The position numbers and the translations under genes were made by a program. Below the pieces are notes generated by a model, which was not told where the DNA came from, searched no databases, and saw only the letters and a list, made by a program, of their open reading frames with translations. Positions 5,960-63,210 of a stretch of DNA of 64,000 bases are shown here, piece by piece. This DNA is from Flavobacteriales bacterium (GTDB lineage Bacteria > Bacteroidota > Bacteroidia > CAIKAF01), in the NCBI GenBank assembly GCA_022402535.1, contig JAKRSD010000022.1, forward strand, positions 54,779 through 118,778, in the 5' to 3' direction. Each line of letters begins with the position of its first letter. Position 1 is the first letter of the stretch.

Positions 5960-7627
5960 TTAGAAACTCAATGTTATACCTCCCATACCGTTGAAACCCT
6001 GCATGGGGTAGCGGAACCAGCGGTTGTAGCGGAATGCCGCAAAATTGTTGAATCCCGCCCAAAACGAAAGCATTTTATTGAAACGGTATTCAGCATGCAG
6101 ATTCAGATCAAACGCATTGCGGATCAGGGTTACACCCGCCACCGGTTTTCTGAGGGTCTCGTCGTAGCGGAAAGGGGAGTAGTGTTCGCCCAGGTAATAG
6201 AAATCGGCCTTAAAGAGAAATTTATCCTGTATGTTGTACGATGCCGAAAGGGTTAAGTCAATTTTGGGCATGTGCCAGGCACGGGCAAACGTCTGAGGTT
6301 TATAAAACCAGTAATTTCCTTTCAGTGCCACATGCAGTTTTTCGCCCATGGCATAGCCGATTTCTCCCGAAACAAACGGGGTATTCATATCATCATACAC
6401 GGTTTTGAAAAAATTGCCCACCGGCTGCAGGGTATCGGTTATAAAAAACACCTGATTTTTGGTCATACGGTATCCGCCGCCCAGAGTATAATACACGTTT
6501 TTGGCAAAATAGCCTTTGAAACCTCCTCGGGCATCAATGGGCGTGTAAGTCTGGCCCAGCATGGGATTCGAAATAATAAACGGATTCACGAGGCGCAGAC
6601 GGTCAAAGGTATTGCGTTCTACTCCGCCTTTGGCCTGTATATATGCCATCACATGGTTTTTATAGAGATTTGCCTGTCCTTCCACCACAGGCATGATGTA
6701 TCCTTTGGCAATGGTATCGAAGGCTCCGGCAACTTCAAAGCCTACTTCCACATTCCATTTTTCGCGTCCGGCTTTGATGTACGGGTTGAATTTAATGAAA
6801 CCCATGCCACGCCCCGAAGTGGCCGTGCCCGGTTTGAAATTGTAATATTCCACCCCGATTCTTCCGCCCACAAAAAAGTCTTTTACATGTTTAGAAACAT
6901 CGGTTCCGGCCCAAAAGGCATGTTCTCTGGATTTTTGCCTATCCTGTAGAAAATAATATCCCATCCGGGTCTGGCTGATCCATTCGGTTTTGCTGGTAAG
7001 ATCGTGGTTGGCAAAAGTCAGTTCTAATCCGGCTTTGTGAAAATGCTGGCGGATGGATTTTTTATCAGGGAACAGGGTGTCGGTCAGCGAATCGGGACGG
7101 AAACCATAGTAATGATTCTGGTCGTAAGTGTATCCACCTTTGAGGCTGAGCGCATGTTTGTTGAACAGGTGCTTGTAGTTTCCATCGGCTTTGTGCTGCT
7201 GCATGCCCGGAAAACCCACGTCTTTCTGTTTTCCAAAGGAAGCAAAGTAGGAATAGCCCACATCATACGCATCGTTTTTGGAACGCAGCGAATTTACCCG
7301 CACCTGAGCCAGCGGAGTCAGGTAATTTCCGAAGCCGAGTTTCATGTAGAGCCGGCGTAGTTTTTTTAGCGGTTCCGATTTCATACGGGCGGCCGAAATG
7401 GTATCGGGATTATGATAAAAGGCAATCTCCCGGGGATTCACATTTATTACAGGATTGGCCCGGGTCTGAAACGTGTCTTTTTCCTCGGGATTTCTCAGCA
7501 GTTTTTCCGAAGGTTTTATTTCCGGAACAAATCCTCCCGTTACAATTACATCGCCGCCTACGCCTTGTGCAAAAGCAGATGCGGAAAAGAAAAGGGCGGC
7601 TATGATATAGGCTGTTTTTTTCATCAT
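5960..7627 (-). CDS. Outer-membrane beta-barrel protein (family usually annotated 'TonB-dependent receptor')
   Basis: Signal peptide (..FSASAFA-Q), alternating amphipathic strands, C-terminal GGITLSF BAM signal; ATG at 7627/7624. Confidence 0.75.
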   Translation of the reverse strand: MMKKTAYIIAALFFSASAFAQGVGGDVIVTGGFVPEIKPSEKLLRNPEEKDTFQTRANPVINVNPREIAFYHNPDTISAARMKSEPLKKLRRLYMKLGFGNYLTPLAQVRVNSLRSKNDAYDVGYSYFASFGKQKDVGFPGMQQHKADGNYKHLFNKHALSLKGGYTYDQNHYYGFRPDSLTDTLFPDKKSIRQHFHKAGLELTFANHDLTSKTEWISQTRMGYYFLQDRQKSREHAFWAGTDVSKHVKDFFVGGRIGVEYYNFKPGTATSGRGMGFIKFNPYIKAGREKWNVEVGFEVAGAFDTIAKGYIMPVVEGQANLYKNHVMAYIQAKGGVERNTFDRLRLVNPFIISNPMLGQTYTPIDARGGFKGYFAKNVYYTLGGGYRMTKNQVFFITDTLQPVGNFFKTVYDDMNTPFVSGEIGYAMGEKLHVALKGNYWFYKPQTFARAWHMPKIDLTLSASYNIQDKFLFKADFYYLGEHYSPFRYDETLRKPVAGVTLIRNAFDLNLHAEYRFNKMLSFWAGFNNFAAFRYNRWFRYPMQGFNGMGGITLSF

Positions 7628-7667
7628 GTTCTTTTTACTGTGGTTGTACATCCTTTGTCAGTTTAGA

Positions 7668-10600
7668 TTAATTACCACCGGGTGAATCAAATTCAAAATC
7701 ATTGAAATCGGGTTTGGTATTCCGCCGGCGTTGTTCGGCTTCGGCTTCTTCCAGTTTTTGGCGGGCCAGATTCACGGTTTCGGGCACATCATGATTGTCA
7801 ATTACACTTTGAAGGGTAGCAATGGCCTGGTCTATATTATCGAGTTTCATGTATACATCGCTGAGCAGGATAAAGTTTTTGGCCAGCCAGTCGTAATACG
7901 AAACCATATCGTTCACGGTAGCCAGAATGCGTTTTTCGCATTGGGTGTATTGCCCGCGTTCGAACATAATTTTACACTCGATATGGGTGGCTTCGGCAGA
8001 GGCTTCTGTCTTTTTGGAATCCGCGGCTTTCTTCAGCCAGGTCAGCGCATTTTCTGTTTCATTTTTATTCAGATAGGCCTTACCTAATAAGAGATAAATG
8101 CGCTCTTTTTCAATGCCGGTTACTTTTTCTTCTTTCAACAGCATGTCGGCATATTCAATGGTTTTGTCGTTGGCTTGGGTTTGAGCATAACTTTCAACCA
8201 ACCGCAGACGGATGAGCAGGATATTGTCTTTCAGTTCGGTTACTTTTTCAGCTTTTTCGTAGGCCTGAATAGCCTCGGCAAATTGACGTTTGGTGAAGTA
8301 AATGCCTCCTGAACGCAATAGGGCATTCTCAGTGAAGTTGTTGAGCGGCGCATTGGCTACGAATAGAAAATCTTCCAGCGACTCGTCCCATTGTTGTTTT
8401 TGGAAATTACATTCCCCACGGTAATAACGGGCATTAATCACAAAAGCCCCGTTGGGGTATTTTTGCAGGTATTTGGTGAAATCGGCTACGGCTTTGTCGC
8501 AATCGCCTTTGATAACCAGGTTTTCTGCCGAAGTATAGAAGGTAGAATCCAACGCCGATTCATTGAAATCTACGCCTTTGATGTTACGCAGAAAGTCCAC
8601 CAGATCGTCGGCTTTGCCGGCATCCACATAAATTACCCGTACATATTTGAGGGCATCGTTGGCTTCGGGTGTTCCCGGGTATTTTTCGAGCACCTGTTTG
8701 AAATAACTCAGCGCCTGTTCATCTTTTTCACGGTTGAAATAATCCAGACCGATTTTGAGCAGTGCTTTTTTGTGAAAACTGCTTCCCGAATATTGATTAA
8801 CCACCCGTTGCATAGTGGCAATTCCTTCCTCGTTTTTTCCATCCAGAAATAAGGTGTTCCCGATTTCAAAAAGGGCTTCGGCCATGTAAGGCGATTTGGG
8901 ATATTCTTTTTCTAACTGGCGCAGGGTGGACAGCTTCTGGTTGTTTTGTTTCAATACGCCCTGAATAATTCCTTTTTGCAGAAGCCCGTAATCGGCATCA
9001 AAACTGGAGGTTTCAATGGCTTTGTTATAGTAAGTAAGGGCCTGATTCCAATCTTTTTGAATGTAATAACAATCTCCTGCACGCAAACAGGCATCCGCTT
9101 TGCGTTTTCCGTCTTTTTCCTTTTTGGCGTTGTCGATATATTTTCTGAATTCCGTGGCCGCCTTTGGATAATTCTTTTGTTTAAATCGTACATATCCTAA
9201 GTTATAATAGGCTTCGTTGAGCAGGCCGCTTTCCAGGGCACCGGGTGTAACTAAAAACTCCTGATAGGCTTCAGCCGCTTCGGGCAATTGATTGCGGCGA
9301 TAAAAAATTTCGCCCTGCCAGAAAATACTTCCTGCCGAGAGCGCATTGTTCCATCCCGGTTTAGCCGATAGATTGTACATTTTTAAGGCCTCATCGTATT
9401 GACCGGCATTAAATAAATCCTGCGCATGAAAATAGGCTACACGGCGGTAGGCATCTTCCAGCCGGCGGTCGTTCTTTTTGATTTTATCAAGCACCTGTAA
9501 GGCATCTTTATAATTTCGGGTGGTCATAAACACTTCCGCCAGAAACCCGTACGCTTCTTTGGCTTTGGGCGAATTGGGGTAGGTATCCAGGTATTCTCTC
9601 AGCGCTTTGATGGCTTCGTTATACGGGTCAAAATCGATTTTGAATGATAATTTGGCAAAATTAAATAGGGCATCTTCGGCCAGGGCTTTGTCTACATCGG
9701 TTTTATAAGCCATTTTGAACGCATCCAGTGCATTACGCTCTTTATTGAGTTTCATATAACAATCGGCCAGTGTGTACCAGGAATTTTGCGCCAGGCTGTC
9801 GTTTACACCCGTGAGTGCGGCAAACCGATCAGCGGCTTCGGCATATTTTTTCGTGTTATAGTAGGCTCTTGCCAGTTTGTAATTGCCTTCACGGTCCAAA
9901 TTCTGTCCCGCAGTCAGAAAGCGGTTATAATTCAGTATGGAGGCATTGTAATCTTCTTTGATGTAATAGGATTCGGCCAGCAGTCGATACACGGGAACTA
10001 CCGATTTTCCTTTGGCGGTATCGGCAATGGTTTTTCCGTAGGAAATTACCTCATCGTATTTCTTTTGGAAATAATAAATCTGCACCACATAGTATGGAAT
10101 CAGGCCCGAAAAGGCTTTCTCTTTTTCAATTTTGCGGAAGTGGACCAGCGCTTCGTCATATTTTTTATTCAGATAATTGATATGCGCATAATAATAAGTG
10201 GCCGGCACAGCATACACATTTTTGGTGTCTTTAATTTCGCGGAAATTGGGCAGCGCTTCGTTGAATTTTCCGGTCATGAAGTAAGAGTACCCCAGTTTGT
10301 ATTTATACTCGTACCATTCTTCGCGGCTGAGTTGGTCAGGTTCAGTTTCTTTAAAGTATTGAATGGCTTCTTTGAATTTTTTCTGACGGAATTTTAATTT
10401 TCCTAATTGAAACCTTGCCGAAATAATTAGCGGACTTTCCGGGTAGGTACTCAAAAAGCGGAGCATGCGCGGTTCTGCATCTTCATGAAATAATTCCACG
10501 GCACACACGGCACTCAGGTAATCGGCATAGGCGCGTGTTCCGGGGGCTTTCTCGGCTTTCAGTTTTAAAAATTCTTCAAACTTGGGCTGTGCGGCCGCAT

Positions 10601-10739
10601 ATTTTTCTTTCTGAAATAGATCTAATCCTTCTTTATACACGGCTTCGGGACTCACATATACTTGGGTGCGTTGTGCGTAGGTTGCCGAAATAAACCATAC
10701 GGAGGCTGCGGTAACAAGTAACTTTTTGAATGTACTCAT
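7668..10739 (-). CDS. Large periplasmic tetratricopeptide repeat protein (~1020 aa)
   Basis: Signal peptide; many TPRs such as AYYNLGYVRFKQKNYPKAATEF and ALFEIGNTLF; ATG at 10739. Confidence 0.9.
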   Translation of the reverse strand: MSTFKKLLVTAASVWFISATYAQRTQVYVSPEAVYKEGLDLFQKEKYAAAQPKFEEFLKLKAEKAPGTRAYADYLSAVCAVELFHEDAEPRMLRFLSTYPESPLIISARFQLGKLKFRQKKFKEAIQYFKETEPDQLSREEWYEYKYKLGYSYFMTGKFNEALPNFREIKDTKNVYAVPATYYYAHINYLNKKYDEALVHFRKIEKEKAFSGLIPYYVVQIYYFQKKYDEVISYGKTIADTAKGKSVVPVYRLLAESYYIKEDYNASILNYNRFLTAGQNLDREGNYKLARAYYNTKKYAEAADRFAALTGVNDSLAQNSWYTLADCYMKLNKERNALDAFKMAYKTDVDKALAEDALFNFAKLSFKIDFDPYNEAIKALREYLDTYPNSPKAKEAYGFLAEVFMTTRNYKDALQVLDKIKKNDRRLEDAYRRVAYFHAQDLFNAGQYDEALKMYNLSAKPGWNNALSAGSIFWQGEIFYRRNQLPEAAEAYQEFLVTPGALESGLLNEAYYNLGYVRFKQKNYPKAATEFRKYIDNAKKEKDGKRKADACLRAGDCYYIQKDWNQALTYYNKAIETSSFDADYGLLQKGIIQGVLKQNNQKLSTLRQLEKEYPKSPYMAEALFEIGNTLFLDGKNEEGIATMQRVVNQYSGSSFHKKALLKIGLDYFNREKDEQALSYFKQVLEKYPGTPEANDALKYVRVIYVDAGKADDLVDFLRNIKGVDFNESALDSTFYTSAENLVIKGDCDKAVADFTKYLQKYPNGAFVINARYYRGECNFQKQQWDESLEDFLFVANAPLNNFTENALLRSGGIYFTKRQFAEAIQAYEKAEKVTELKDNILLIRLRLVESYAQTQANDKTIEYADMLLKEEKVTGIEKERIYLLLGKAYLNKNETENALTWLKKAADSKKTEASAEATHIECKIMFERGQYTQCEKRILATVNDMVSYYDWLAKNFILLSDVYMKLDNIDQAIATLQSVIDNHDVPETVNLARQKLEEAEAEQRRRNTKPDFNDFEFDSPGGN

Positions 10740-10903
10740 ACTGTTTGGATACAAATTTTCGAAGTAAAGGTATATAGCCGGCAGGCGCATTGATAAACGA
10801 TACGCCCCAACTTTTCAACCCCGGACGTTTAATAAATGTTTGAGAGCAAACGCCCCCGATGTAATAATATCAGGCATTTTTGCAATGTTTAACACTCCAC
10901 GAT

Positions 10904-11584
10904 ATGGCTTCATCCGAATCAAGAATTTTACTGAAAAATGTGCAGATTTTTCAAGGAAAACATCTCATTTTAAAGGATGTAAATTTGGATATTCATTCGG
11001 GTGAATTTGTGTATATGATCGGTAAAACGGGCAGTGGAAAAAGTTCTCTGCTCAAAACCCTGTATGCCGACATTCCGCTTAAGGATGGCGAAGGTATGGT
11101 TACCGATATGAGTCTGGTAAATCTGCGAAAAAACGATGTGCCTTTTCTGCGCCGCAAACTGGGTATCGTATTTCAGGATTTTCAACTGCTGAGCGACCGT
11201 TCCGTGCATGATAATCTGTTTTTTGTACTCAAGGCTACGGGCTGGGACAGCAAAAAGAAAATGGACGAACGCATTGAAGAAGTGTTGGATATGGTGGGGC
11301 TGAAAACGAAAGGACATAAATTTCCGCACGAATTATCGGGCGGGGAACAGCAACGGGTGGTGATTGCCCGCGCCCTGCTCAATAGGCCCCAACTTATTTT
11401 GGCCGATGAACCTACGGGAAATCTGGATCCGGAAACATCCGAAGAAATTATCCGACTGTTGATTAACATCAGTCGCACGGGAACGGCTATGTTGGTAGCT
11501 ACCCACGATTATGAAATCCTGAAAAAATATCCGAGTCGTACGATTGTGGTGGAAGATTCTACCGTGAAGGAAAAATCTCTTTAA
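10904..11584 (+). CDS. ftsE: FtsE-like ABC ATP-binding protein
   Basis: Walker [47 protein letters not shown]; no ftsX adjacent. Confidence 0.8.
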
Positions 11585-12701
11585 GCATAATTTCGGCTCC
11601 GTGGCGGTTTGAGAAAGCCGTTTCTAACATTTCGCTTCGCTTTGCAATTTCTTCCTGCGTGAATTTTTTGGAGAATAAGTCAGAGATGCCTTTTTTCATG
11701 GTTTGGGGCGTATTTTCTATCCGACAGAGTTTTTCCAAACCGGTGCCTTTTACCATGTTTTCATTCACGAGGCAATGTCTGCCATAAAACAGCGCCATCA
11801 ATAACTTGAGCTTGATACCCGTGGATTGCCACGTGGGTAATATATTGATATGGGCTTTGTGCACCAGGGATTGAATTTCGGCGGTATCTACTTTGCTTTT
11901 TAAGCAAACGTTGGACGATGCATCGCAGGCATCGCGCAGTTCTTTCGAAGGATTTTTACCGGCAATCACCAGTTTGTAGGGCAGATCGTTGAATACTTCC
12001 TTCACCAGTTTGATGGCGGCATGGTTATTTTCGGCCACATCCAGACTGCCGTGATATAACGCAAAATCATTTCCGCCTTCATCAATGCTTACTTTGTCGT
12101 TCAGGTGAAAAGCCGTTACACACCAAACCGGCGTATCCGCGTATTTTTTGCTGAAATATTCTGCATCAGCTTTAGAAATGGCAAATATTCCGCTGCATTG
12201 CGCAAGTATCTGTTCAAACTGTTCCAGTTTTCCCGCTTCTGAGGAATAATAATAGCGTTTGAAAATATTGCGTTCTACATTAGCTAACCCGCGATAATAA
12301 TCGTGTTCTACATTGTGTGTACGCACAAATATTTTTCTCTTTTTCAGCTGGGGATTTGAAATAATTCCGCAGCAATGCAAACCTTCCAATAAAATGGGAT
12401 AATTGTCTTTTGCCAAACGGTTCACCAATTCTTCCGAACGGCGCCCATATACCACATAAGGCAAGGCCCCGAAGAGTCCGTTTTTACCGGTATCTCTGCG
12501 GTAATAATGCACTTCTTCGCAGTAGGCATTAAGCTCGGGAGCCTGCGGACGGCCATATTCATAACAATGCAGAATGATACTAACTCCGGCTTCCTTTAAC
12601 GCTTTAATTTTGCAGAAAATATCAATCAATCCTCCGTTATCCGCCGGAAAGGGGATGTTGAATGCCACCAGGTGCAGCTTATTTTTGGAGGATTTGCTCA
12701 T
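11559..12701 (-). CDS. Glycosyltransferase, GT4 family
   Basis: GT-B features: IPFPADNGG N-terminus, TGIKLKLLMAL nucleotide-sugar-binding region. Confidence 0.8.
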   Translation of the reverse strand: MSKSSKNKLHLVAFNIPFPADNGGLIDIFCKIKALKEAGVSIILHCYEYGRPQAPELNAYCEEVHYYRRDTGKNGLFGALPYVVYGRRSEELVNRLAKDNYPILLEGLHCCGIISNPQLKKRKIFVRTHNVEHDYYRGLANVERNIFKRYYYSSEAGKLEQFEQILAQCSGIFAISKADAEYFSKKYADTPVWCVTAFHLNDKVSIDEGGNDFALYHGSLDVAENNHAAIKLVKEVFNDLPYKLVIAGKNPSKELRDACDASSNVCLKSKVDTAEIQSLVHKAHINILPTWQSTGIKLKLLMALFYGRHCLVNENMVKGTGLEKLCRIENTPQTMKKGISDLFSKKFTQEEIAKRSEMLETAFSNRHGAEIMLKEIFPSR

Positions 12702-13821
12702 AACGCTTTTTCAGTTCGATTTCTTCGTTTTCTCTGCACAATTTTTCGGCGGCGAATGTAAGATTTTTCTTCCATGTACTGCGCCGGTTTTCATCGTTCA
12801 GGCATTCCTCCATTTTCTTAGCGATGTGTTCAGTCTCAAACTGTTCAATACAGTCGCCCACCTCATAGGTTTCAATAATGTTTTTTAACTCGGGCAGGGG
12901 AGAAGAAAGTACGGGAATGCCCGCCTGTATGTAATCGAAAATTTTATTGGGCAGGCTGTACAGGTAATTCAGGTTATCGCCTTTATCGAGTGTGATGCCC
13001 AAGTCCGCATTCAGCGTGTATTGCATAAGTTCTTCATAAGGCAGACGGCCTTTGAACCACACTTTTTCATGCAAGTTTTCCTGTTGTACTTTCTGTTTGA
13101 GGGCGGGAATCACATCGCCGTTTCCGATAATAAGCAAAAGGCAGGGAAAATCAATATGTTTCATCGCTTCCACCGCTTCTTCTGCACCACGTCTTACATT
13201 GATTCCGTTGCCTTGCAGAATGATGATTTTTTTATCGGCAGGTAACCCTAGTTCAGCTCTTGTTTTTCTTACGGGCGGATGAAAACGGTACGGCATGTTT
13301 CTGAACACCAGAAACTTTACACCGTAACGTTTTTCTAAGATATCGGCAATGGATTGATTTACGGTGATGCAATGCGATAAACGGGGCACAATGCTTTTTT
13401 CAATACGCAGCCATACCCATTTGGCAAAGGCGTTTTCTTCCAGTTCGGGGACTTCGGTAAACAGTTCGTGACTGTCATACACCAAAGGGATGTTTTTGAA
13501 ACGCGATACCAGATAATTGGCGGGTAACGTGTCGAGGTCGTTCGCCACCAACACATCCGACTTAGAAAATAACAGATGGAAAAAAAGCCGGATGTTATAT
13601 TCTGCATAAAAAAATGCACTTTTACTGAATAAGAGCCGCATACGGGTCTGCGTATATTTTTCGGAAGAAAGCGGCGGACTTTCGGGCAATTTCCTACCGA
13701 TGAATTCCACTGTATGTCCCATTTCGGTGAGCATGGAGCAGAGACGCTTCACGCGGTTGTCCGTGACCAGATCATTGGTTACGGATACCAAAATTTTTCG
13801 GGACGGGGATTGGCTCTTCAC
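12679..13821 (-). CDS. Glycosyltransferase, GT4 family
   Basis: SVTNDLVTDNRV, VYDSHELF, PNKIFDYIQAGIPVLSSPLPE; GTG start. Confidence 0.88.
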   Translation of the reverse strand: MKSQSPSRKILVSVTNDLVTDNRVKRLCSMLTEMGHTVEFIGRKLPESPPLSSEKYTQTRMRLLFSKSAFFYAEYNIRLFFHLLFSKSDVLVANDLDTLPANYLVSRFKNIPLVYDSHELFTEVPELEENAFAKWVWLRIEKSIVPRLSHCITVNQSIADILEKRYGVKFLVFRNMPYRFHPPVRKTRAELGLPADKKIIILQGNGINVRRGAEEAVEAMKHIDFPCLLLIIGNGDVIPALKQKVQQENLHEKVWFKGRLPYEELMQYTLNADLGITLDKGDNLNYLYSLPNKIFDYIQAGIPVLSSPLPELKNIIETYEVGDCIEQFETEHIAKKMEECLNDENRRSTWKKNLTFAAEKLCRENEEIELKKRYEQILQK

Positions 13822-13896
13822 GCTGCCAAAGGTATTAATTACGGTTTTGGGAATTGCGGGTTTTAGTAAAGAAACATGGAATTCATTCGAATTTTA

Positions 13897-13904
13897 TACA
13901 TTTG
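13897..13904 (+). promoter_or_regulatory. sigmaA -7 element TACATTTG driving the riboswitch leader
   Basis: Exact TAnnTTTG 7 nt upstream of the riboswitch 5' end. Confidence 0.65.
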
Positions 13905-13911
13905 GCACGGT

Positions 13912-13966
13912 GGCAATGGTGTCTGCCCTGAACCGCTCCGCATCTTGCGGAACTGATGGCGCCTAC
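13912..13966 (+). ncRNA. Fluoride riboswitch (crcB motif)
   Basis: GGCAATGGTGTCTGCC-CTGAACCGCT-CCGCATCTTGCGG-AACTGATGGCGCCTAC matches the GGCRAUGGNGUYYGCC...AACCGC...hairpin...CURAUGRCRCCUAC pattern; lies directly upstream of a CLC-F gene. Confidence 0.93.
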
Positions 13967-13997
13967 TTAAATCAATAAAAGTTGAAATGGGTAGGTT

Positions 13998-15320
13998 ATG
14001 AAAAAAAGAAAAACGGTTCATTCATCCTCAAATAGTAAAGAAAAGGAAATTCGGCCTGAATCCCTTGTACATAAAGGATTAAAATGGTTTCTGTTTATCC
14101 TGATTTCGGGCGCAGCTGCCGGAACGTTGTCTGCCCTGTTTTTGTACTTGTTGGACCGGGTTACCGAAATGAGAATGGCATCCCCTGTGTTGATTTGTTT
14201 TTTACCCCTTGCCGGTTTTGTGTTAGGCTGGATTTATTACCGCTTTGGAGGCCGTGCCAATGCCGGGAATGGAGTAATCACTTCTGAGTTTTACACGCCA
14301 TCCGAACCCATTCCTTTTCGTTTGGCTCCCTTTGTTTTGGGCGGCACGCTGTTAACCCATCTTTTTGGCGGATCGGCAGGCCGGGAGGGAACCGCCGTGC
14401 AGATGAGTGTAGCCGTAACCGATCGTTTTGTAAACTGGTTCGGATTAAAATCTCTGAACAGGCAGATTATGATTAGGGCGGGAATCAGTGCCGGCTTTGC
14501 TTCTGTGTTCGGAACTCCCTTTGCGGGAGCCATTTTTGCGTTGGAAACCTTAACCGTGAAGAAATTTTCTTTCAAAGCGGTAATCCCCGTGGTGGTGATT
14601 GCTTTTTGGGCAGACTTTGTCTGCCATGCCTGGGGAGTGGGGCATACCCGTTATGAACCGATCGAACTTCCTGCTTTTCAGTTTTCTTTTTTAGGGTGGA
14701 TTCCTTTAGCCGCTATTATCATGGGGCTTACGGCTTTTCTTTTCCTGCAGCTTCTTCATTCGTTTGCCCGTTATTTTCAGCAATGGATTACTTATCCTCC
14801 TCTTAGGCCTTTTATCGGCGGGGCGATATTAGCCCCGACGGTGCTTCTGTTCGGGTGGTATGATTATGTGGGATTGGGTGTTCCGGTAATTGTTTCTTCT
14901 TTTTCTGAAGAATGGCCTGCGTATGCTTTTCTGCTGAAAATTCTGCTGACTACTTTTACGCTTGCCGCCGGATTTAAAGGGGGAGAGGTTACTCCCTTGT
15001 TTTTTATCGGAGCCCTGCTCGGAAATGCCTTAAGCGCTTTTATTCCGCTGCCCCTGGCCTTTTTGGCCGGTTTGGGTTTTGTGTCGGTGTTTTCAGGGGC
15101 TACCAATGCGCCCATAGCCTGTGCCGTGATGGGCATGGAGTTGTTTGGGTGGCAGATGGGTGGGTATCTCTTGGTTTGTTCCGTGTTGGCATTTGTTTTT
15201 TCAGGAACATCAGGGTTATATGTTTCGGGTTATTCTTTAGAAAATATCCATCCCTTACTTGGAAAATCTAATCGATTCATTACTAATTATTTTGAAAAAG
15301 TATTGAAAACGGTTAAATAA
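13998..15320 (+). CDS. CLC-F type F-/H+ antiporter (EriC-like fluoride exporter)
   Basis: CLC-F subclade signatures GNGVI (for GNNLI), GREGT and GEVTP; preceded by a fluoride riboswitch. Confidence 0.92.
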   Translation: MKKRKTVHSSSNSKEKEIRPESLVHKGLKWFLFILISGAAAGTLSALFLYLLDRVTEMRMASPVLICFLPLAGFVLGWIYYRFGGRANAGNGVITSEFYTPSEPIPFRLAPFVLGGTLLTHLFGGSAGREGTAVQMSVAVTDRFVNWFGLKSLNRQIMIRAGISAGFASVFGTPFAGAIFALETLTVKKFSFKAVIPVVVIAFWADFVCHAWGVGHTRYEPIELPAFQFSFLGWIPLAAIIMGLTAFLFLQLLHSFARYFQQWITYPPLRPFIGGAILAPTVLLFGWYDYVGLGVPVIVSSFSEEWPAYAFLLKILLTTFTLAAGFKGGEVTPLFFIGALLGNALSAFIPLPLAFLAGLGFVSVFSGATNAPIACAVMGMELFGWQMGGYLLVCSVLAFVFSGTSGLYVSGYSLENIHPLLGKSNRFITNYFEKVLKTVK

Positions 15321-15433
15321 TCAAAAACTTTAAACTTGTAGTAACATCTTTTAAAAGTATTGTTATTTTCGTACGCCGTGTTTTTAAGAACACGTGTTCT
15401 AATCTTTGATTTTTAGACAATATTTTAAGATAG

Positions 15434-18400
15434 ATGAAGAAGTGCTTTACTTTCTTGTTTTTGTGTTTTACAGCAATGGGATTATATTCTCAAACCCCAT
15501 GTAATATTCAGGCTTTTGCATCGCCATTGCAGATTCAATGTGGACAGGAAGTTCAGTTATCGGCATTTGGAACCGGTTCCGGCAATGTGGCATTTCAGGA
15601 GAATTTTAATTCAGGCAGTCCACAGGGATGGCAGTTCACCCAAACGGTTACCATAGCCAACAACACTTGTGGTGTTCCCTCACCTGATGGTTCTCCATTT
15701 ATGTGGATGGGAGATGCGTCGGTGAATCCGCGGGATATGACAACTGTTCCTTTCGACTTGACATTAGGGGGGACCATTTGTTTTGAAATGCGCTATGCCA
15801 TCCAGGGGCAGGCATCTCCCTGCGAAGGTCCGGATGAGCCACAAGAGGGGGTTTATGTGCAATACAGTGTAAATGGTGGGGCTAACTGGACAACCATTGA
15901 ATATTGGAATCCAAACGGAGGAAACGATGCCCAGCTCGTAAACTGGAATCAGTATTGTCTGGCTATACCTCCCGGGGCTCAGACTCCCAATACGATGATT
16001 CGTTGGCATCAGGATAATGTGAGTGGCGCTGAATATGATCACTGGGGTATTGATAATGTCATCATCACGCTTAATGATCCCAATTATGTAATCACATGGA
16101 ATCATGACGGATATTCATATGGTTTAGGCTCATCGGGCGGATTAAATCCCAATATCGTGTCACCGACATCCACCACGACTTATACCGTGCAGATTTCTGA
16201 CGGAAATAACACCTGTACCGATCAGATTCAGGTGGTGGTGTCTGATCCTGTAATTGTGGTATCCGCCGAATCTGATGTAACTATTTGTCCCGGAGAATGT
16301 GTAGATTTAGATGGGACCGCATATTGGCAAATTCAGCCGGCGGGACCGGTCACTTTTGTTAATGATGTTTCTCAGACCATCTCAGCCGGTTTCGGTGGTG
16401 GAGCCATCAGCATTCCCATTGTTACCAGCGGATTGAATATCGGGGCGTTAGGTGCGAACGATATTTTAGAAGTCTGTATCACCAATATGTCTTATTTCGG
16501 GCAGAATATTTTTCCTCCTTCGTTGCTCACCGTAGGTTCATTTACCATTAATCTGGTATGCCCGGGAGGAAACAGCATAACGCTGGTGCCAAACGGCGTA
16601 ACTACCAGTACATTTATTCTTCCCGGATATGTGAACACCTGCTTCACCATGTCGGCCATGAATCAGATTAACACCGCATCTCCACCATATTCAAATACAT
16701 ATCAGCCCAATCAATCGTTTGCCAATTTAGCAGGATGTCAGGCAAATGGTACGTGGACCATGTCGTTGGTTCCATCGGGTTTGCTTGGTGTGGGTTCAGG
16801 AAATTTTGGCGGATGGTCCATTACGTTTGATGATCCGGGTTTGGTGGGACCGGTAACGTATACATGGAGCCCTACTACAAACATGACCGCTGAAAACACG
16901 CTTACACCCGAAGTATGTCCCAATTTTACAACAACTTATACACTCACCGCCACCAATGCACCGGGATGTTTACCGGCTTCAGATCAGGTTACGGTAACCG
17001 TTCCTAATTCATGTTGTCAGCTACAGCTAGTTAATGTGGCCGTTACTCAGCCAAGTTGTACCGGCAACGACGGACAAATTGTAATAACAGTGTCGGATGC
17101 CATTGCCGGGCTGCAATACAGCATTGATAACGGAGTTACGTTTCAGGCTTCAAATACATTTACCGGTTTAGCTCCAGGAGCTTATAACGTTTTGGTAAAT
17201 GATGATAATGATTGTCCGGTGGGTCAAGCAGTTGATCTGGTAAATGATAATGCGCCTGTGATAGATGATATTATTACTAGTAACTCTTCATGCGTTGGAA
17301 ATGATGGAAGTATAACCGTAAATGCATCGGGAGGAAGCGGTGGGTTTCAGTACAGTCTTGATGGAGGAGTTACTTTTCAGGCATCCAATGTTTTTTCGGA
17401 CTTAGCCGCCGGAAATTATACCATTACCCTAGAAGATGCAGGCGGTTGTCAGGCCACCGGACAGGCAACGGTTTCCACACCAGGAGGTTTGTCTATAACT
17501 GCGGTAAATACCACACAACCATCCTGCGGACAAGCCGATGGTTCCTTAGTAATTATTGCCAACGGAAACGGAATTCAGTATAGTATCGATGGTGGGGTAA
17601 CTTATCAGGTATCTTCTACATTCACAGACCTATCTTCGGGAAATTATACCATTACCGTGCTGGACGAAGATGGATGTGAAGCTACCGAAAATGTGGTTTT
17701 AAATGATTTCGGTGCACCGGTTATCAATTCGGTGCAGGTAGTAAATATTGGTTGTGCAAATGCGGTGGGTTCTATCACCATAAATGCCACAGGCCAAAAT
17801 TTACAATACAGTATTGATGGAGGCGTCACCTTTCAGGCGGGGAATGTATTCAACGGGTTGGCGGCAGGAACTTACAATGTATTGGTGAGCGAAAACGGCT
17901 GTGAAGCTTCTGAAACGGCACAGATAACCGAATCTCCCATTCTTGCGGCAAACTTAAATGTTATAAATGACGGTTGTACCCCTGATTGTTCCGGCTCCGT
18001 TGCCGTGAATATAACAAACGGAACCCCGCCATACACCTATAACTGGGCCGGGGGAGTTGCCGGAAATGTGCCTCAGATACTCAATCTATGTGCTGGAAAT
18101 TATTCGGTGAATATTCAGGATGAAACGGGATGTACTTTAGCATTACAAGGGGCTGTGGGAACGTCCTCTTCGCCCTTGGCTGATTTTGATTTTAACCCTT
18201 CGCAGGTGATATTGCCGGATGGATTGGTTTCCTTCACCAACTTGTCAAGCGGATCCGATTCGTATTCATGGTCATTTGCCGGCTTGGGAATTTCTGATGC
18301 GGCAAATCCTTTGTTCGATTTTAGTGCAGCAGCTCCCGGTGTTTATCCTGTTTGTTTAATCGCTTTCAATGCGGAAGGGTGTAGTTCAGAACACTGCGAA

Positions 18401-18703
18401 AATCTGACAGTGAAAGAAGACTTTCTGCTCTTTATCCCCAATGCTTTTACTCCCAATGGTAATAACCAGAACGAAACTTTTTTTCCTGTAACACGAGATA
18501 TTTTGTTTGGCGACGAATTTGAATTTTCGGTGTTCAGCCGTTGGGGCGAATTGATGTTTATTACCCAAGAGAGTAATCAGGGCTGGGACGGAACATATTT
18601 TGGTAAACAGCTTCCTCCGGATGTATATGTGTGGAAAGTCAAAGTGAAAGCGAAAGGACAGCTCGAAAAAGTATATTTGGGACATGTAACACTCCTCAGA
18701 TAA
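15434..18703 (+). CDS. T9SS type-B (gliding motility-associated CTD) cell-surface protein: Reelin-like domain, P-domain, SprB repeats, PKD
   Basis: Signal peptide; C-terminal FIPNAFTPNGNNQNETF...VFSRWGELMF...GWDGTYFG...YVW...GHVTLLR; repeats YSIDGGVTFQxxNxFxxLxxGxY. Confidence 0.9.
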   Translation: MKKCFTFLFLCFTAMGLYSQTPCNIQAFASPLQIQCGQEVQLSAFGTGSGNVAFQENFNSGSPQGWQFTQTVTIANNTCGVPSPDGSPFMWMGDASVNPRDMTTVPFDLTLGGTICFEMRYAIQGQASPCEGPDEPQEGVYVQYSVNGGANWTTIEYWNPNGGNDAQLVNWNQYCLAIPPGAQTPNTMIRWHQDNVSGAEYDHWGIDNVIITLNDPNYVITWNHDGYSYGLGSSGGLNPNIVSPTSTTTYTVQISDGNNTCTDQIQVVVSDPVIVVSAESDVTICPGECVDLDGTAYWQIQPAGPVTFVNDVSQTISAGFGGGAISIPIVTSGLNIGALGANDILEVCITNMSYFGQNIFPPSLLTVGSFTINLVCPGGNSITLVPNGVTTSTFILPGYVNTCFTMSAMNQINTASPPYSNTYQPNQSFANLAGCQANGTWTMSLVPSGLLGVGSGNFGGWSITFDDPGLVGPVTYTWSPTTNMTAENTLTPEVCPNFTTTYTLTATNAPGCLPASDQVTVTVPNSCCQLQLVNVAVTQPSCTGNDGQIVITVSDAIAGLQYSIDNGVTFQASNTFTGLAPGAYNVLVNDDNDCPVGQAVDLVNDNAPVIDDIITSNSSCVGNDGSITVNASGGSGGFQYSLDGGVTFQASNVFSDLAAGNYTITLEDAGGCQATGQATVSTPGGLSITAVNTTQPSCGQADGSLVIIANGNGIQYSIDGGVTYQVSSTFTDLSSGNYTITVLDEDGCEATENVVLNDFGAPVINSVQVVNIGCANAVGSITINATGQNLQYSIDGGVTFQAGNVFNGLAAGTYNVLVSENGCEASETAQITESPILAANLNVINDGCTPDCSGSVAVNITNGTPPYTYNWAGGVAGNVPQILNLCAGNYSVNIQDETGCTLALQGAVGTSSSPLADFDFNPSQVILPDGLVSFTNLSSGSDSYSWSFAGLGISDAANPLFDFSAAAPGVYPVCLIAFNAEGCSSEHCENLTVKEDFLLFIPNAFTPNGNNQNETFFPVTRDILFGDEFEFSVFSRWGELMFITQESNQGWDGTYFGKQLPPDVYVWKVKVKAKGQLEKVYLGHVTLLR
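17114..17880 (+). repeat. Four tandem SprB-type coding repeats (~76-78 aa)
   Basis: CARTAYAG..GAT..GG..T.AC.T.TCAG units begin at 17114, 17348, 17576 and 17804 (spacing 234, 228, 228 nt). Confidence 0.85.
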
Positions 18704-18714
18704 CAGATAAAAAC

Positions 18715-18747
18715 AAAAAAGGGATATGAATTTCATATCCCTTTTTT
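18715..18747. terminator. Bidirectional Rho-independent terminator
   Basis: Perfect inverted repeat AAAAAAGGGATATGAA-T-TTCATATCCCTTTTTT between convergent genes. Confidence 0.9.
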
Positions 18748-18765
18748 ATTCATGAATAATTCAAT

Positions 18766-20388
18766 TTATTTCAATCGTATCAATGCAGGCGTATTGGTGT
18801 TTTTAGCACCTCTTCCTGATCTTCTCGAAGAGCTTAGGATCAGTCCCGGAGCTACTTCATCCATATCGTAGGGAAGAATCATTTTTTGTTCATCTCTTAA
18901 ATCAAAAAGTCTTACTCTGTTCATTTTGCCCGACGGGTCAATTTTAATGGCCATCAGACATCCGTCTTTGAAAGAGCGGAATTCAACGGGGGCATTACTG
19001 TCAGGTAAATTGATGTTTTTTACATTGTCCAGATGGAAAAGATACACATTGTCGTTGTGCACAAAAGAACTGATTCCTGCACCATAAGTAGAGTTAATAA
19101 AGTGCTGGTTCTTGGGCACTTTTAATGTCCATTGTTCCGCCCCGTCAGGTCCTACGGAAGAAACAATCATATCTTGGAAATAATAGTGGTACGTATAACG
19201 CACGTTACCCCTGCTGTCGGTAGATGTGGTAACCACAAGGTGATATTGTTCTCCTACCATTATCCATCCGCCGTCTTGTTTTTTTCTGATCATACGGGTT
19301 TCCAAAAATGGAATTCCGGGCTCTTTGCCTTTCGCAATGGCTTTTTCTAATTTACGTTTGGTACGGTCTTTTTCAAATGATGTAATCAGTTCGCCGCTGA
19401 ATGCATATTGGTTCACGCTTTCCAGCGATTTGGTTTCCGGGTTGAATACGGCCGTAAAATACCCCGTGAAAGTAGTTACCCGTTTTTTGGGTTGGATATA
19501 TCCACCGATCATGATTTTGTTACCGAACCCTAATCCAAAAATTAAATCTTTGAAATAGAGTTTATCCATTTCCAACGAATACTCTTTAGGTTCTTTGGCG
19601 TCTTTGGTAATATGCAGAACACCCAACTCATCAAATTCGGGTTTTTTGGTTTCCGGGTTTAATCTACCCGACATGGATTCCACAAAGGTAAATACCTCAT
19701 CGCCCACCAGCCTGAAATTCAGGATGCGCATTTCAGCTTCGGTGTGGGGCATGGTTACTTCTTTGTTCCAAATCTGTTTCCAGGAGCGGTCATACAAGTG
19801 AAACTCATATTTCTCGTAGTTCTTGGCATCCCTTTTTTTTTCGTTTTTGTACTTGTAGTACAATAAAATGCGGTCGCTGTTGTCGGGGGCAATTACTTTA
19901 AATTTATCGGTAACTGAAAAGGAATAAAATCCTGTTGCAATGTATGTTCCGGTTACTTTACGGTTAGTTTCAATGAGTTGCATGGGACTGTCTAAAAACT
20001 TTCCTTCCAGCAGGTCCACTTCCTGTACATATAATTTTTCGCTCTGGTTGGCTTTATCAAAATCTGAGAACAGGAAAAAAGCACGATTGTCAAATTCCAC
20101 AATCGTTTCAAACATGATGTATTTGCTTTTCATCATATTTTCCATGTTGTTTCCTTCATACTTCAAATCAGAAGAAAAGCGATATAAACCGATTTCTTTC
20201 TTTTTTAAGTTTTCAGAAACCTGCACATAACCCGTTTTAGGATTTCCGATGAAACCTGCCCGAATATGTTTCTTCAGTAACGGGGCATTATCTCCCCATT
20301 GAATGTCTACAAAGTCTGCCGATTTTTGTCCCCACATTCCAAGGGATAAAAACCAAAATCCTACGATTCCTACCAGTTTTTTATTCAT
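18766..20388 (-). CDS. Hypothetical exported protein, beta-rich (possible propeller)
   Basis: 540-aa ORF with signal peptide (..LGMWG-Q); repeated short beta strands; no catalytic motif recognised. Confidence 0.75.
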   Translation of the reverse strand: MNKKLVGIVGFWFLSLGMWGQKSADFVDIQWGDNAPLLKKHIRAGFIGNPKTGYVQVSENLKKKEIGLYRFSSDLKYEGNNMENMMKSKYIMFETIVEFDNRAFFLFSDFDKANQSEKLYVQEVDLLEGKFLDSPMQLIETNRKVTGTYIATGFYSFSVTDKFKVIAPDNSDRILLYYKYKNEKKRDAKNYEKYEFHLYDRSWKQIWNKEVTMPHTEAEMRILNFRLVGDEVFTFVESMSGRLNPETKKPEFDELGVLHITKDAKEPKEYSLEMDKLYFKDLIFGLGFGNKIMIGGYIQPKKRVTTFTGYFTAVFNPETKSLESVNQYAFSGELITSFEKDRTKRKLEKAIAKGKEPGIPFLETRMIRKKQDGGWIMVGEQYHLVVTTSTDSRGNVRYTYHYYFQDMIVSSVGPDGAEQWTLKVPKNQHFINSTYGAGISSFVHNDNVYLFHLDNVKNINLPDSNAPVEFRSFKDGCLMAIKIDPSGKMNRVRLFDLRDEQKMILPYDMDEVAPGLILSSSRRSGRGAKNTNTPALIRLK

Positions 20389-60576: not shown

Positions 60577-63210
60577 ATGGGTAATATTTTAAGATTTTTT
60601 GGGAAACTATCCCTGATTTACCCCCTTTCCCTCCTGTCATTTTCCGGGCATGCACAGTGCCTATCCGGAAACTGCTATGCTTTTGCAGACGCTTCCTCTT
60701 TGCAGATTTGCAGAGGACAGCAGGTGACTTTAACTTCAGAGGGTGGGGCGGCAGCGCTCTTTAATAATTTTAATAATCAAACCGTTGGAACAGGTTGGTT
60801 GACAAACAATATCAACGTGATGTTTAACAATCCCTGCGGTCCAAACGGCAGTGACGGAACCCCTTATTTGTGGTTTGGAAATACTTCCGGTGCGGGACAA
60901 AGAACTCTCACAACGGTTGACTTTAATTTAACAGGTGGGGGAAGTATTTCATTTGATTTGCGCTTTTCAATTCAGGGGCAGGCTGCACCCTGTGAAGGTC
61001 CGGATTTAGCAAACGAAGGAGTATATTTTCAATATTCCACTAACTTCGGAGGTACATGGAATACCATTTTTTACTTTGATCCTAACATTAATGGCAGCGG
61101 CGGTGGAGCAGGTTCGCCTTACGTGAATTGGGCGACATATAATTATGCAATTCCATTAGCTGCTCAAACACCATGTACCCGTTTCCGTTGGTTTCAAAGT
61201 GAGGTTTCCGGTGAACCGTTTGATCATTGGGGACTTGATAATATTTTTATCGGCGGACCGCCGCCAGATCCTTCTTCTATTGTTTTTCAGTGGACAGACG
61301 GTGTTCCCGGAGGTCCAGACCGTATAGTGGCTCCTCAGGTTACTACCACTTACACGTTAATGTATGGTACTTCTGCCGATACTTGTTATGACAGTGTAAC
61401 CATTGAAGTATTTGATGTTCCAGAAGCCAATTTAACAGCAACTCCTGCATTAGCCTGTGTGGGTCAGCCTGTAAATTTTGATGCATCAGGAACTCAAAGC
61501 ACAACCCCCATATCAAATTATAAATGGCGTTTCAATAACTCGGGAGTCGTAAATCAAACAACAACTTCACCTAACACAACCTTTACGTTTCCGATTACAG
61601 GAACATTCAACACTTCGGTAATTGTTACCTCGGGAATATGCTCAGACACTGCATTCTTTCCGGTATCAGTAACGAATCCGCCAACTGTTAACTTCACCAT
61701 TCCTTCTCAGGTGTGCGAAGGGCAGGTGTTTCAGGTAAATGCATCTGCCACCACTATAGGGGCGCCTGCTACAATAGCAACATATGATTGGGATTTTTAT
61801 AATGACGGAACGACTGATATAACCACCAATCAGCCGATATCTGAATATTCACTCTCTGGACCGGGCCCTGTTCCCGTAAAATTAACAGTAACTTCCTCGG
61901 CAGGATGTGCGCTTTCTTCGGTACAGAACATGACTGTTTTTGAAATTCCGGAAGTGGATTTCTCCTTTAATGATGCCTGTATCGGAACCGCTACTCAGTT
62001 TACCAATCAGACACAGGGTACAGTAACGCAATGGGGTTGGAATTTCGACGGATTGGGAACTTCGGTAAGCGAAAACCCCAATTATACTTTTCCAGGTGCT
62101 GGGGTTTATTCTGTAACGTTAATTGCTAATAACAATAATGTGTGTGCGGATACCTTGTCTTTGGATGTAGATATTAAAAATACGGCCACGGCTGATTTCT
62201 CATTTAATGATCCGTGTTCGCTTACAGCTATTTTTGAAGATTTGTCGTTTGTTCCTCCTACCTCTGAAGGAAGTATAGTTTCATGGAGTTGGAATTTTGG
62301 AAATGGATCGCAGAGTTCAGATCAAAATCCTACCCATACATATAACAATAACGGAGTATATAATGTAACGCTCACGGTTGAAACAGACAGAGGATGTGTT
62401 AATTCTATCACCAAACAAATGCCCAGATATGCATTGCCGGTTGCGGCTTTCTCTGCGGCTGAAGTCTGTTTTGGGCAGATTACTCAGTTTGCCAACACGT
62501 CATCTGTTGCTTCGGGACAAATTGCGTCCTCCTCATGGCAATTTGGCGACGGACAGGGTTCAACTAATTTTTCACCGGCCTATAGCTATGATGCCGATGG
62601 ATTTTACACTGTCACACTGATAGTGGTAACCGATAACAATTGTTCTGATACCATTTCGCAGACTTATCAGGTTTATCCACAGCCCGTTGCTGCTTTTGAA
62701 AGTGATCCGAATGGAATTACGGATATGTTGAGTCCAGATGTGCTTTTCACCGATTTGTCTACTAATGCAGATAGTTGGACTTGGACATTCGGAACTATTG
62801 GAGGTTCTGCCGAACAAAATCCATTGTTTTCCTTTCCTACTTCAGGTTCATATGATATAACGCTGATTGCACAAAATCAATACGGTTGTAAAGCTGCCGT
62901 TACACAAGGTTATGAGGTGCTTCCCGCATATAATTTTTATGTTCCTAATTCATTTACTCCGTTCAATGGGGATGATATAAATTCACTTTTCCGTTCCTAT
63001 CACACAGGAGTGGACATCTTGGAGTTCGGAATTTATAACCGTTGGGGCGAACAAATTCTATTTACCCGTGATGTCAATTTTACCTGGGATGGTACATTCC
63101 GAGGTAAGCGTTGTCCTCAGGGACTTTATGTATATAAAGCCTGGGTTCGCGATATAGAAGGAAAACATTACTTCTACGAAGGCATCATTAATCTTTTGGA
63201 CGGAGAATAA
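60577..63210 (+). CDS. T9SS type-B cell-surface protein: Reelin-like domain, PKD array, gliding-motility CTD
   Basis: Signal peptide; about six PKD units (WSWNFGNG, WQFGDG..YTVTL); YVPNSFTP..IYNRWGE..WDGT..GLYVY..GIINLL. Confidence 0.9.
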   Translation: MGNILRFFGKLSLIYPLSLLSFSGHAQCLSGNCYAFADASSLQICRGQQVTLTSEGGAAALFNNFNNQTVGTGWLTNNINVMFNNPCGPNGSDGTPYLWFGNTSGAGQRTLTTVDFNLTGGGSISFDLRFSIQGQAAPCEGPDLANEGVYFQYSTNFGGTWNTIFYFDPNINGSGGGAGSPYVNWATYNYAIPLAAQTPCTRFRWFQSEVSGEPFDHWGLDNIFIGGPPPDPSSIVFQWTDGVPGGPDRIVAPQVTTTYTLMYGTSADTCYDSVTIEVFDVPEANLTATPALACVGQPVNFDASGTQSTTPISNYKWRFNNSGVVNQTTTSPNTTFTFPITGTFNTSVIVTSGICSDTAFFPVSVTNPPTVNFTIPSQVCEGQVFQVNASATTIGAPATIATYDWDFYNDGTTDITTNQPISEYSLSGPGPVPVKLTVTSSAGCALSSVQNMTVFEIPEVDFSFNDACIGTATQFTNQTQGTVTQWGWNFDGLGTSVSENPNYTFPGAGVYSVTLIANNNNVCADTLSLDVDIKNTATADFSFNDPCSLTAIFEDLSFVPPTSEGSIVSWSWNFGNGSQSSDQNPTHTYNNNGVYNVTLTVETDRGCVNSITKQMPRYALPVAAFSAAEVCFGQITQFANTSSVASGQIASSSWQFGDGQGSTNFSPAYSYDADGFYTVTLIVVTDNNCSDTISQTYQVYPQPVAAFESDPNGITDMLSPDVLFTDLSTNADSWTWTFGTIGGSAEQNPLFSFPTSGSYDITLIAQNQYGCKAAVTQGYEVLPAYNFYVPNSFTPFNGDDINSLFRSYHTGVDILEFGIYNRWGEQILFTRDVNFTWDGTFRGKRCPQGLYVYKAWVRDIEGKHYFYEGIINLLDGE

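Follow-up and report, generated by a model that had tools for sequence, protein, structure and literature searches.

A reelin-type jelly-roll domain nested in an immunoglobulin-like repeat of a predicted type IX secretion cargo protein from a Flavobacteriales bacterium

Identification of the reelin-type domain

The window analyzed here is a stretch of 64,000 nucleotides from a freshwater Flavobacteriales bacterium (contig JAKRSD010000022.1), and its gene at 15434-18703 encodes a predicted surface protein of the cargo class of the type IX secretion system (T9SS), which carries a domain homologous to the subrepeats of animal reelin. The host belongs to the Flavobacteriales of the Crocinitomicaceae/Vicingus type. 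The interval that encodes the domain, 15590-16072 on the forward strand, contains no stop codons and corresponds to residues 53-213 of the open reading frame (ORF). A preliminary description of this DNA had taken the same region for a Reelin-repeat-like domain, and the strings quoted in its favor (MTTVPFDLTLGGTICFEMRY, CEGPDEPQEGVYVQYSVNGGANWTTI, IPPGAQTPNTMIRWHQ and YDHWGIDNVII) were all found in the translation. The assignment was borne out by the Pfam model PF21471, by searches of the PDB and of protein databases, and by the predicted fold.

When the whole protein was scanned against Pfam, PF21471 (Reelin_subrepeat-B) matched residues 77-211 with an E-value of 3.9e-27 and 95 bits, the gathering cut-off of this model being 27 bits, and the excised 161 residues alone gave 74.6 bits. 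Among all PDB chains, phmmer with the full-length protein as query found five reelin entries (3A7Q/5B4X, 2E26, 6A48, 7LYU, and 2DDU; E 6e-15 to 2e-7), and the sole non-reelin match listed was a glutaredoxin with an E-value of 0.54, which aligned to a different region of the protein. The profile built from ten bacterial copies found reelin in the PDB at E 1.4e-78, with the next chain at E 0.59, and scored 77-104 bits per reelin B subrepeat and 28-53 bits per A subrepeat. Moreover, phmmer with the 161-residue piece against 1.84 billion representative proteins gave 1507 matches at E ≤ 1e-3 and 912 at E ≤ 1e-10, and named animal reelins were found among them, from Callorhinchus (E 1.7e-77), Ptychodera, Tachypleus, Tubulanus, and Anneissia. 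The identity to reelin subrepeats was 27-31% in the phmmer alignments and 18-25% in structural alignments. Since the Pfam model, the PDB search, the ten-copy profile, and the search of 1.84 billion proteins all reached reelin, the homology lies far beyond chance, and we are practically certain that the domain and the reelin subrepeats are truly homologous.

To locate the conserved residues, 61 domains then labelled bacterial, 12 of which were later relabelled as probably eukaryotic, were aligned with 51 subrepeats from three animal reelins. Conservation in both groups was found at 23 positions: F58, W66, C79, G86, R100, T104, D108, F117, C130, V140, P179, A182, and T187, together with the Asp-box Y144-S145-x-x-G149-x-x-W152, the strand R190-W191-x-Q193, and W204, D207, and I211. 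Among these, C79, C130, R100, R190-W191-x-Q193, W204, and D207 were each kept in at least 75% of the bacterial copies and at least 60% of the reelin B copies. The pair C79/C130 was invariant in the bacterial set and nearly invariant in reelin, suggesting that the bacterial domain and reelin have this disulfide in common. The Asp-box, S145-V-N-G-G-A-N-W152, fits the motif S/T-x-D/N-x-G-x-x-W described for reelin (PMC4882317). The Asp residue of the final strand, D207, was conserved as well. Reelin subrepeats are described as having a Ca2+ site (PMC4882317), with a structural ion on the convex face, and any Ca2+ dependence of the bacterial domain would be conjecture.

Predicted fold of the domain

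An AlphaFold2 model of residues 18-300, built on 32 homologues, had a mean predicted local distance difference test (pLDDT) score of 86.4 and a predicted template modelling score of 0.74. When this model was compared with the PDB by Foldseek, reelin structures occupied ranks 1-8 (E 1.7e-9 to 1.4e-7), with a root-mean-square deviation of 2.4 Å over 160 columns for 2DDU and 25% identity for 7LYU. The modelled domain is an 11-strand jelly roll that can be superposed on the solved reelin subrepeats. Below rank 8, the matches were a xanthanase (1e-6), the MAM domain of meprin (5e-5), and CBM4, CBM27, CBM35, and ephrin-receptor domains (1e-4 to 1e-3). The preliminary description had proposed this very comparison, in which best matches to generic MAM, CBM, or cleaved-adhesin domains would have spoken against it; the best matches were reelin. 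Its placement of an Asp-box within a jelly-roll fold agreed with the S145-W152 motif, with a match to the Pfam model PF02012 (BNR), and with the reelin-like fold of the model. By sequence and predicted fold, the domain thus belongs to the same family as the reelin subrepeats (PF21471; 2DDU, 2E26, 3A7Q, 5B4X, 6A48, and 7LYU), with which it shares the jelly roll, the Asp-box S-x-N-x-G-x-x-W, the Cys pair, the R-W-x-Q strand, and a final strand with W-x-x-D-N-V.

The significant Foldseek scores of CBM4/27/35, meprin MAM, and ephrin-receptor domains raise the question of whether the likeness to reelin is convergent, or reflects just membership in the general superfamily of galactose-binding-like jelly rolls (MAM, CBM, and cleaved adhesin). 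Weak PF21471 matches of 20-35 bits scattered across many T9SS proteins point the same way. The CBM4, CBM27, CBM35, and MAM domains do resemble our domain in their general jelly-roll architecture and are its next-best structural matches; however, they are without a detectable sequence relationship to it, as the bacterial profile gave no PDB match in these families. At the sequence level, reelin was matched with E-values of 1e-15 to 1e-78; all other PDB chains stayed above E 0.5. In addition, the 23 conserved positions, Cys pair and Asp-box included, are common to both sides, and the Foldseek E-values for reelin are three to five orders of magnitude ahead of those for the other families. We therefore regard convergence or mere superfamily membership as hardly credible, and true homology to reelin subrepeats stands as the explanation.

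The top match in a BFVD search was A0A8D9FS04, a 1423-residue "putative signaling protein" labelled as coming from an uncultured marine phage and 44% identical to the whole nested module described below (Foldseek E 1e-27). This entry is either a copy carried by a phage or a bacterial contig wrongly filed under viruses.

Nested topology and domain order

Profile alignment of the predicted domains showed the reelin-type jelly roll to sit nested in a loop of a first immunoglobulin (Ig)-like repeat. When the jelly roll was cut out of 32 homologues and its flanks were joined, they aligned colinearly across the junction with uninterrupted Ig-like repeats of 78 residues, taken from related proteins at loci L015-L021 (hhalign probability 94, E 1.4e-7, score 41.3), and shuffling of the columns of the N-terminal flank lowered the score to 33-36 in all 20 trials. 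A Pfam scan of the same joined flanks without the insert had been tried and gave weak matches only (I-set, E 0.13; PKD_5, E 0.0025), and it was hhalign that settled the topology. In P0123, a paralogous protein encoded in the window, the jelly roll and its flanks are both conserved, with 41% identity over residues 23-295.

The second Ig-like repeat is interrupted in the same manner, and its joined flanks (residues 277-297 and 470-528) gave an hhalign probability of 96.8 and E 2.9e-10. Its insert, residues 298-468 (16325-16837, forward strand), is modelled as a β-sandwich of about 170 residues (pLDDT 88), for which the best Foldseek matches were the P-domains of furin and Kex2 (E 4e-3) and the Pfam match was PF01483 with E 0.099; PF01483 is also on record for some homologues. 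The identification of this insert as a proprotein-convertase P-domain is thus plausible but weak. Two successive domain-in-domain modules within one protein make an unusual layout.

The unit of an Ig-like repeat with its insert was also seen at loci L015-L021, and in MBX3100897.1 (P0124), a protein of 3445 residues from Bacteroidota. Like the protein studied here, MBX3100897.1 carries Ig-like repeats with inserted reelin-type jelly rolls on a T9SS cargo, but it has twelve such units in tandem and a type-A sorting domain, whereas our protein has one unit and a type-B sorting domain. The length of MBX3100897.1 is about that of reelin, which is a coincidence.

Behind the two nested modules lie four clear SprB repeats, starting at residues 542, 620, 698, and 774 with a period of about 77 residues, and a fifth, divergent repeat. 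The PKD-like domain that comes next was matched weakly by the Pfam models PKD and PKD_4 (E 0.15-0.26), and its region showed 36% identity to the last PKD domain and C-terminal domain of P0123. The protein ends in a type-B sorting domain at residues 1000-1089, which exceeded the cut-offs of both TIGR04131 (54.2 bits; cut-off 35) and PF13585 (44.8 bits; cut-off 27). In agreement, the genome encodes 41 T9SS type-B cargo genes, of which this gene is one, and four PorP/SprF genes with TIGR03519 matches above cut-off. The layout of the locus is summarized in Table 1.

Table 1. Position of the gene, its encoded domains, and related features in the window.
Feature	Coordinates	Strand	Basis
Whole gene, 1089-residue T9SS type-B cargo protein, predicted at the surface (P0002)	15434..18703	+	ORF, translation, Pfam and NCBIfam domains
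Putative Sec-type signal peptide, residues 1-20 (MKKCFTFLFLCFTAMGLYSQ)	15434..15493	+	Basic N-terminus then hydrophobic core, read from sequence
Ig-like repeat 1, N-terminal strands, residues 21-50 (...IQCGQEVQLSAFG)	15494..15583	+	hhalign of joined flanks; AlphaFold2 pLDDT 85-90
Reelin-type jelly-roll domain, residues 53-213	15590..16072	+	PF21471 95 bits; AlphaFold2 pLDDT ~90; Foldseek ranks 1-8 reelin
Asp-box hairpin QYSVNGGANW, residues 143-152	15860..15889	+	Motif fit; PF02012 BNR match at residues 143-153
Ig-like repeat 1, C-terminal strands, residues 217-276 (YVITWNHDG...TTTYTVQISDGNNTC...VVV)	16082..16261	+	hhalign; P0123 conservation; AlphaFold2 pLDDT ~90
Ig-like repeat 2 (residues 277-297 and 470-528) with nested P-domain-like β-sandwich (residues 298-468)	16262..17017	+	hhalign, AlphaFold2, Foldseek
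Four SprB-type repeats (~77 residues each) and fifth, divergent repeat	17036..18154	+	PF13573 53 bits, three stretches; motif positions
PKD-like domain, residues 914-989	18173..18400	+	Weak Pfam; alignment to P0123
T9SS type-B C-terminal sorting domain (CHU_C) and stop codon	18431..18703	+	TIGR04131, PF13585
19-bp hairpin between convergent genes, likely two-way terminator	18711..18751	.	Terminator scan; consensus match only
Paralogous gene P0123, 877 residues, same nested reelin-type module (domain 60757-61257), six PKD domains, CHU_C	60577..63210	+	PF21471 76 bits

Several elements of this layout had been anticipated. The preliminary description had called the protein a T9SS cargo, with which TIGR04131 and PF13585 agree, and had given it a stalk of a P-domain, four SprB repeats, and a PKD domain; of these, the four SprB repeats stood, the PKD domain was recovered in part, through weak Pfam matches and its alignment to P0123, and the P-domain was matched weakly (E 0.099 and 4e-3). 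It had also put the reelin-type domain on the distal tip at the N-terminus. The domain does lie at the far end, but it does not form a free N-terminal tip, since the jelly roll is nested in the Ig-like repeat.

The arrangement differs from that of reelin itself. Reelin is built of A-EGF-B pairs, whereas the protein studied here has a single PF21471 stretch, no EGF match, and Ig-like flanks, which does not amount to a horseshoe unit. Furthermore, reelin has a Reeler domain, eight repeats, and a basic C-terminal region, none of which are present here, and the bacterial protein is therefore not an orthologue of reelin. A further comparison is with the SprB/RemA-type T9SS type-B cargo adhesins of gliding Bacteroidota, which likewise have a long stalk of SprB and PKD repeats and a type-B sorting domain, and whose Sec signal would correspond to the putative signal peptide of our protein. 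SprB is much longer than our protein, and RemA carries a lectin domain as its head where our protein has the reelin-type jelly roll.

Phylogenetic position of the bacterial domains

PF21471 bears the name of subrepeat B, and it was found not to be B-specific, as it matched 18 stretches in shark reelin (A, B, and N-terminal) with an average of about 104 bits. We analyzed 112 domains with IQ-TREE, in an unrooted tree whose support values are given as ultrafast bootstrap/Shimodaira–Hasegawa-like approximate likelihood ratio test. The 49 bacterial copies all fell on one side of a branch (99/94), and all the reelin A, B, and N-terminal subrepeats were on the opposite side (98/94). Reelin A formed a long-branched clade (100/99), and within the bacterial radiation, the subfamily of our domain branched as a derived clade (100/100). 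In a quick tree of the same rows, each RnB orthologue group united shark, hemichordate, and horseshoe crab. Because the bacterial copies lie outside all the reelin subrepeats, the domain is not specifically a "B" domain; it is sister to the reelin subrepeats taken together rather than a B subrepeat that was captured, and any transfer predates the bilaterian eight-repeat protein.

It could be argued that a single reelin subrepeat B was recently captured from an animal, or that the contig is contaminated with animal DNA. The name of the Pfam model and the better scores of B subrepeats with bacterial queries (62-108 bits, vs 21-68 for A) would fit such a capture. However, the 49 bacterial domains are separated from every class of reelin subrepeat with the support given above, and every RnB orthologue group already includes shark, hemichordate, and horseshoe crab. 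Contamination is further contradicted by the putative bacterial signal peptide, the T9SS sorting domain, the bacterial neighbors, and the presence of the domain at 452 loci of species genomes. Thus, recent capture or contamination is highly improbable, and the position of the bacterial domains as sister to all reelin subrepeats is preferred.

The nearest neighbors of the bacterial clade in the tree were two giant tandem-array proteins, P0125 (5983 residues, 35 copies) and P0178 (4090 residues, 20 copies), in which reelin-type domains are directly adjacent and the linkers are mucin-like and rich in Ser/Thr/Pro. P0178 is encoded at 8001-20273 of locus L102, on a gene-poor contig of 288 kb where the 8 kb upstream hold no ORF of at least 90 residues and exon-like fragments matching PF21471 lie downstream. 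Both proteins had been labelled bacterial; this label was dropped on account of the mucin-like linkers and the gene-poor contig, and they were relabelled ahead of the final tree. They are probably eukaryotic, but not reelin.

The preliminary description had proposed a phylogeny with metazoan and bacterial hits as a way to learn where the reelin repeat came from. The tree answered this in part, by placing the bacterial clade outside all reelin subrepeats; being unrooted, it is compatible with a transfer from bacteria to animals as well as with the reverse. One scenario is that early animals, or unicellular relatives of theirs, obtained the building block of reelin from the lineage represented by the Ig-like and jelly-roll unit of Bacteroidota, by way of one transfer from a bacterium to a eukaryote, duplication into A and B, and eight-fold amplification. 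The data are compatible with such a path because the bacterial clade is deep, diverse, and outside all reelin subrepeats, and because eukaryotic-looking tandem arrays adjoin it; taken as a whole, we consider it a speculative and rather unlikely course of events.

With these results, the reelin subrepeat is no isolated animal invention, as it has a large and diverse bacterial sister family on secreted surface proteins, and with this family a properly rooted phylogeny could address where the reelin repeat came from. In addition, the small, single-copy bacterial versions of the fold are usable for structural and binding studies.

Distribution of the domain

The nested modules of the first gene and of the second gene in the window (60577-63210) share 41% identity, and the genome has four PF21471 matches in total. 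Among related genomes, a PF21471 match was present in 35 of 41 and exceeded the cut-off in 29 of them. Across the phylum, PF21471 was found in 21 of 301 genomes, and the strongest scores (104 bits) came from another family. Next, the close subfamily defined by the motifs PCEGPD and DHWGIDN was surveyed; this survey covered that subfamily alone, and it confirmed 452 loci in species-representative genomes. Almost all of these belong to Flavobacteriales, mostly Crocinitomicaceae and Vicingus, and the named carriers include Fluviicola, Wandonia haliotis JCM 16083 (with a domain of 80% identity), Lishizhenia, Vicingus, and Cryomorphaceae. The module is conserved across hundreds of species, being invariant or 60-96% identical, with PCEGPD and DHWG(I/L)DN invariant, and this conservation speaks for selection acting on it. 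The sequence was also detected in metagenomes from freshwater, wastewater, and activated sludge, and a search for RNA runs returned DNA metagenomes only.

Eight loci in metagenome-assembled genomes (L022, L045, L047, L067, L077, L078, L092, and L097) carry domains 64-96% identical to the Flavobacteriales subfamily under titles such as Competibacteraceae, Saccharospirillaceae, Sphingomonadales, Polynucleobacter meluiroseus, and Chryseobacterium gleum. The likeliest explanation is that the contigs were mis-binned or the records mis-named.

Hundreds of full-length homologues were found under the source name "gliding motility-associated C-terminal domain protein", and their precomputed annotations already list PF21471. 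The domain is therefore common in such bacteria and already matched by Pfam, so that both the family and the T9SS cargo class are known ones. Our literature searches found no paper on bacterial reelin-type domains, with the proviso that key reelin papers may mention bacterial relatives. The present analysis adds two points, namely that the domain is nested and that the bacterial clade falls outside both types of reelin subrepeat. The identification is correct and moderately interesting, and it does not describe a new kind of system.

Proposed function of the protein

Taken together, the protein is probably a T9SS-exported surface protein that displays the reelin-type jelly roll as an exposed binding head. 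According to this model, the putative Sec signal peptide would carry the protein into the periplasm, and the type-B sorting domain would pass it to the T9SS for export and subsequent attachment to the outer face of the cell. From the anchor outward, the order would then be the PKD-like domain, four to five SprB repeats, the Ig-like repeat with the P-domain-like sandwich, and the Ig-like repeat with the jelly roll. The jelly-roll head might recognize glycans or proteins carried by particles, prey, or other cells, and the repeats behind it would act as a stalk.

For the binding role of the jelly roll taken by itself, which is argued largely by analogy, we see the chances as evenly poised. It is suggested by the position of the jelly roll, which is the part furthest from the anchor, and by the conservation of the head among homologues whose stalks vary in repeat type and length, as would be expected if the head is functional. 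The subfamily also has loop motifs of its own, PCEGPD and DHWGIDN, which are invariant, and the structurally nearest families, as well as reelin, have binding roles; reelin subrepeats bind receptors (PMC4882317). Any partners of the bacterial domain must differ from those of reelin, as there are no lipoprotein receptors in a bacterial setting.

Two observations weigh against this model. Since no PorP/SprF or other functionally linked gene was found adjoining 15434-18703 when the neighborhood was checked, in which the gene differs from those of SprB/RemA-type cargo adhesins, attachment to the surface is here assumed from the family. Moreover, the same type of domain builds rods in reelin and in the bacterial protein with twelve copies, so a purely structural role is conceivable, in which the domain would be a spacer or rod element that makes the stalk stiffer or longer without binding any ligand. 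Bacterial proteins with five (P0129) and twelve (P0124) tandem copies agree with such a role, as do the straight rod formed by reelin repeats (PMC4882317) and the description of the reelin Asp-box as structural. Nevertheless, the domain is present here in a single copy, at the end most distant from the anchor, and this head position is conserved in the subfamily while the stalk changes freely between SprB and PKD repeats and the protein length ranges from 600 to 1900 residues; the loop motifs, in turn, never vary. We consequently judge a spacer without a ligand to be unlikely, and the exposed head remains our preferred model. The head domain is a candidate determinant of what Flavobacteriales of freshwater and wastewater stick to.

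Neighboring genes and the intergenic hairpin

A ClC channel gene lies upstream of 15434-18703, and a convergent ORF without an assigned function lies downstream. At the thresholds used, the ORFs at 18766-20388 (reverse strand, 540 residues) and 5960-7651 (reverse strand, 563 residues) gave no Pfam match, and the former gave no NCBIfam match either. The hairpin between the convergent genes is a perfect 19 bp with T-runs on either side, and is likely to be a terminator acting in both directions.

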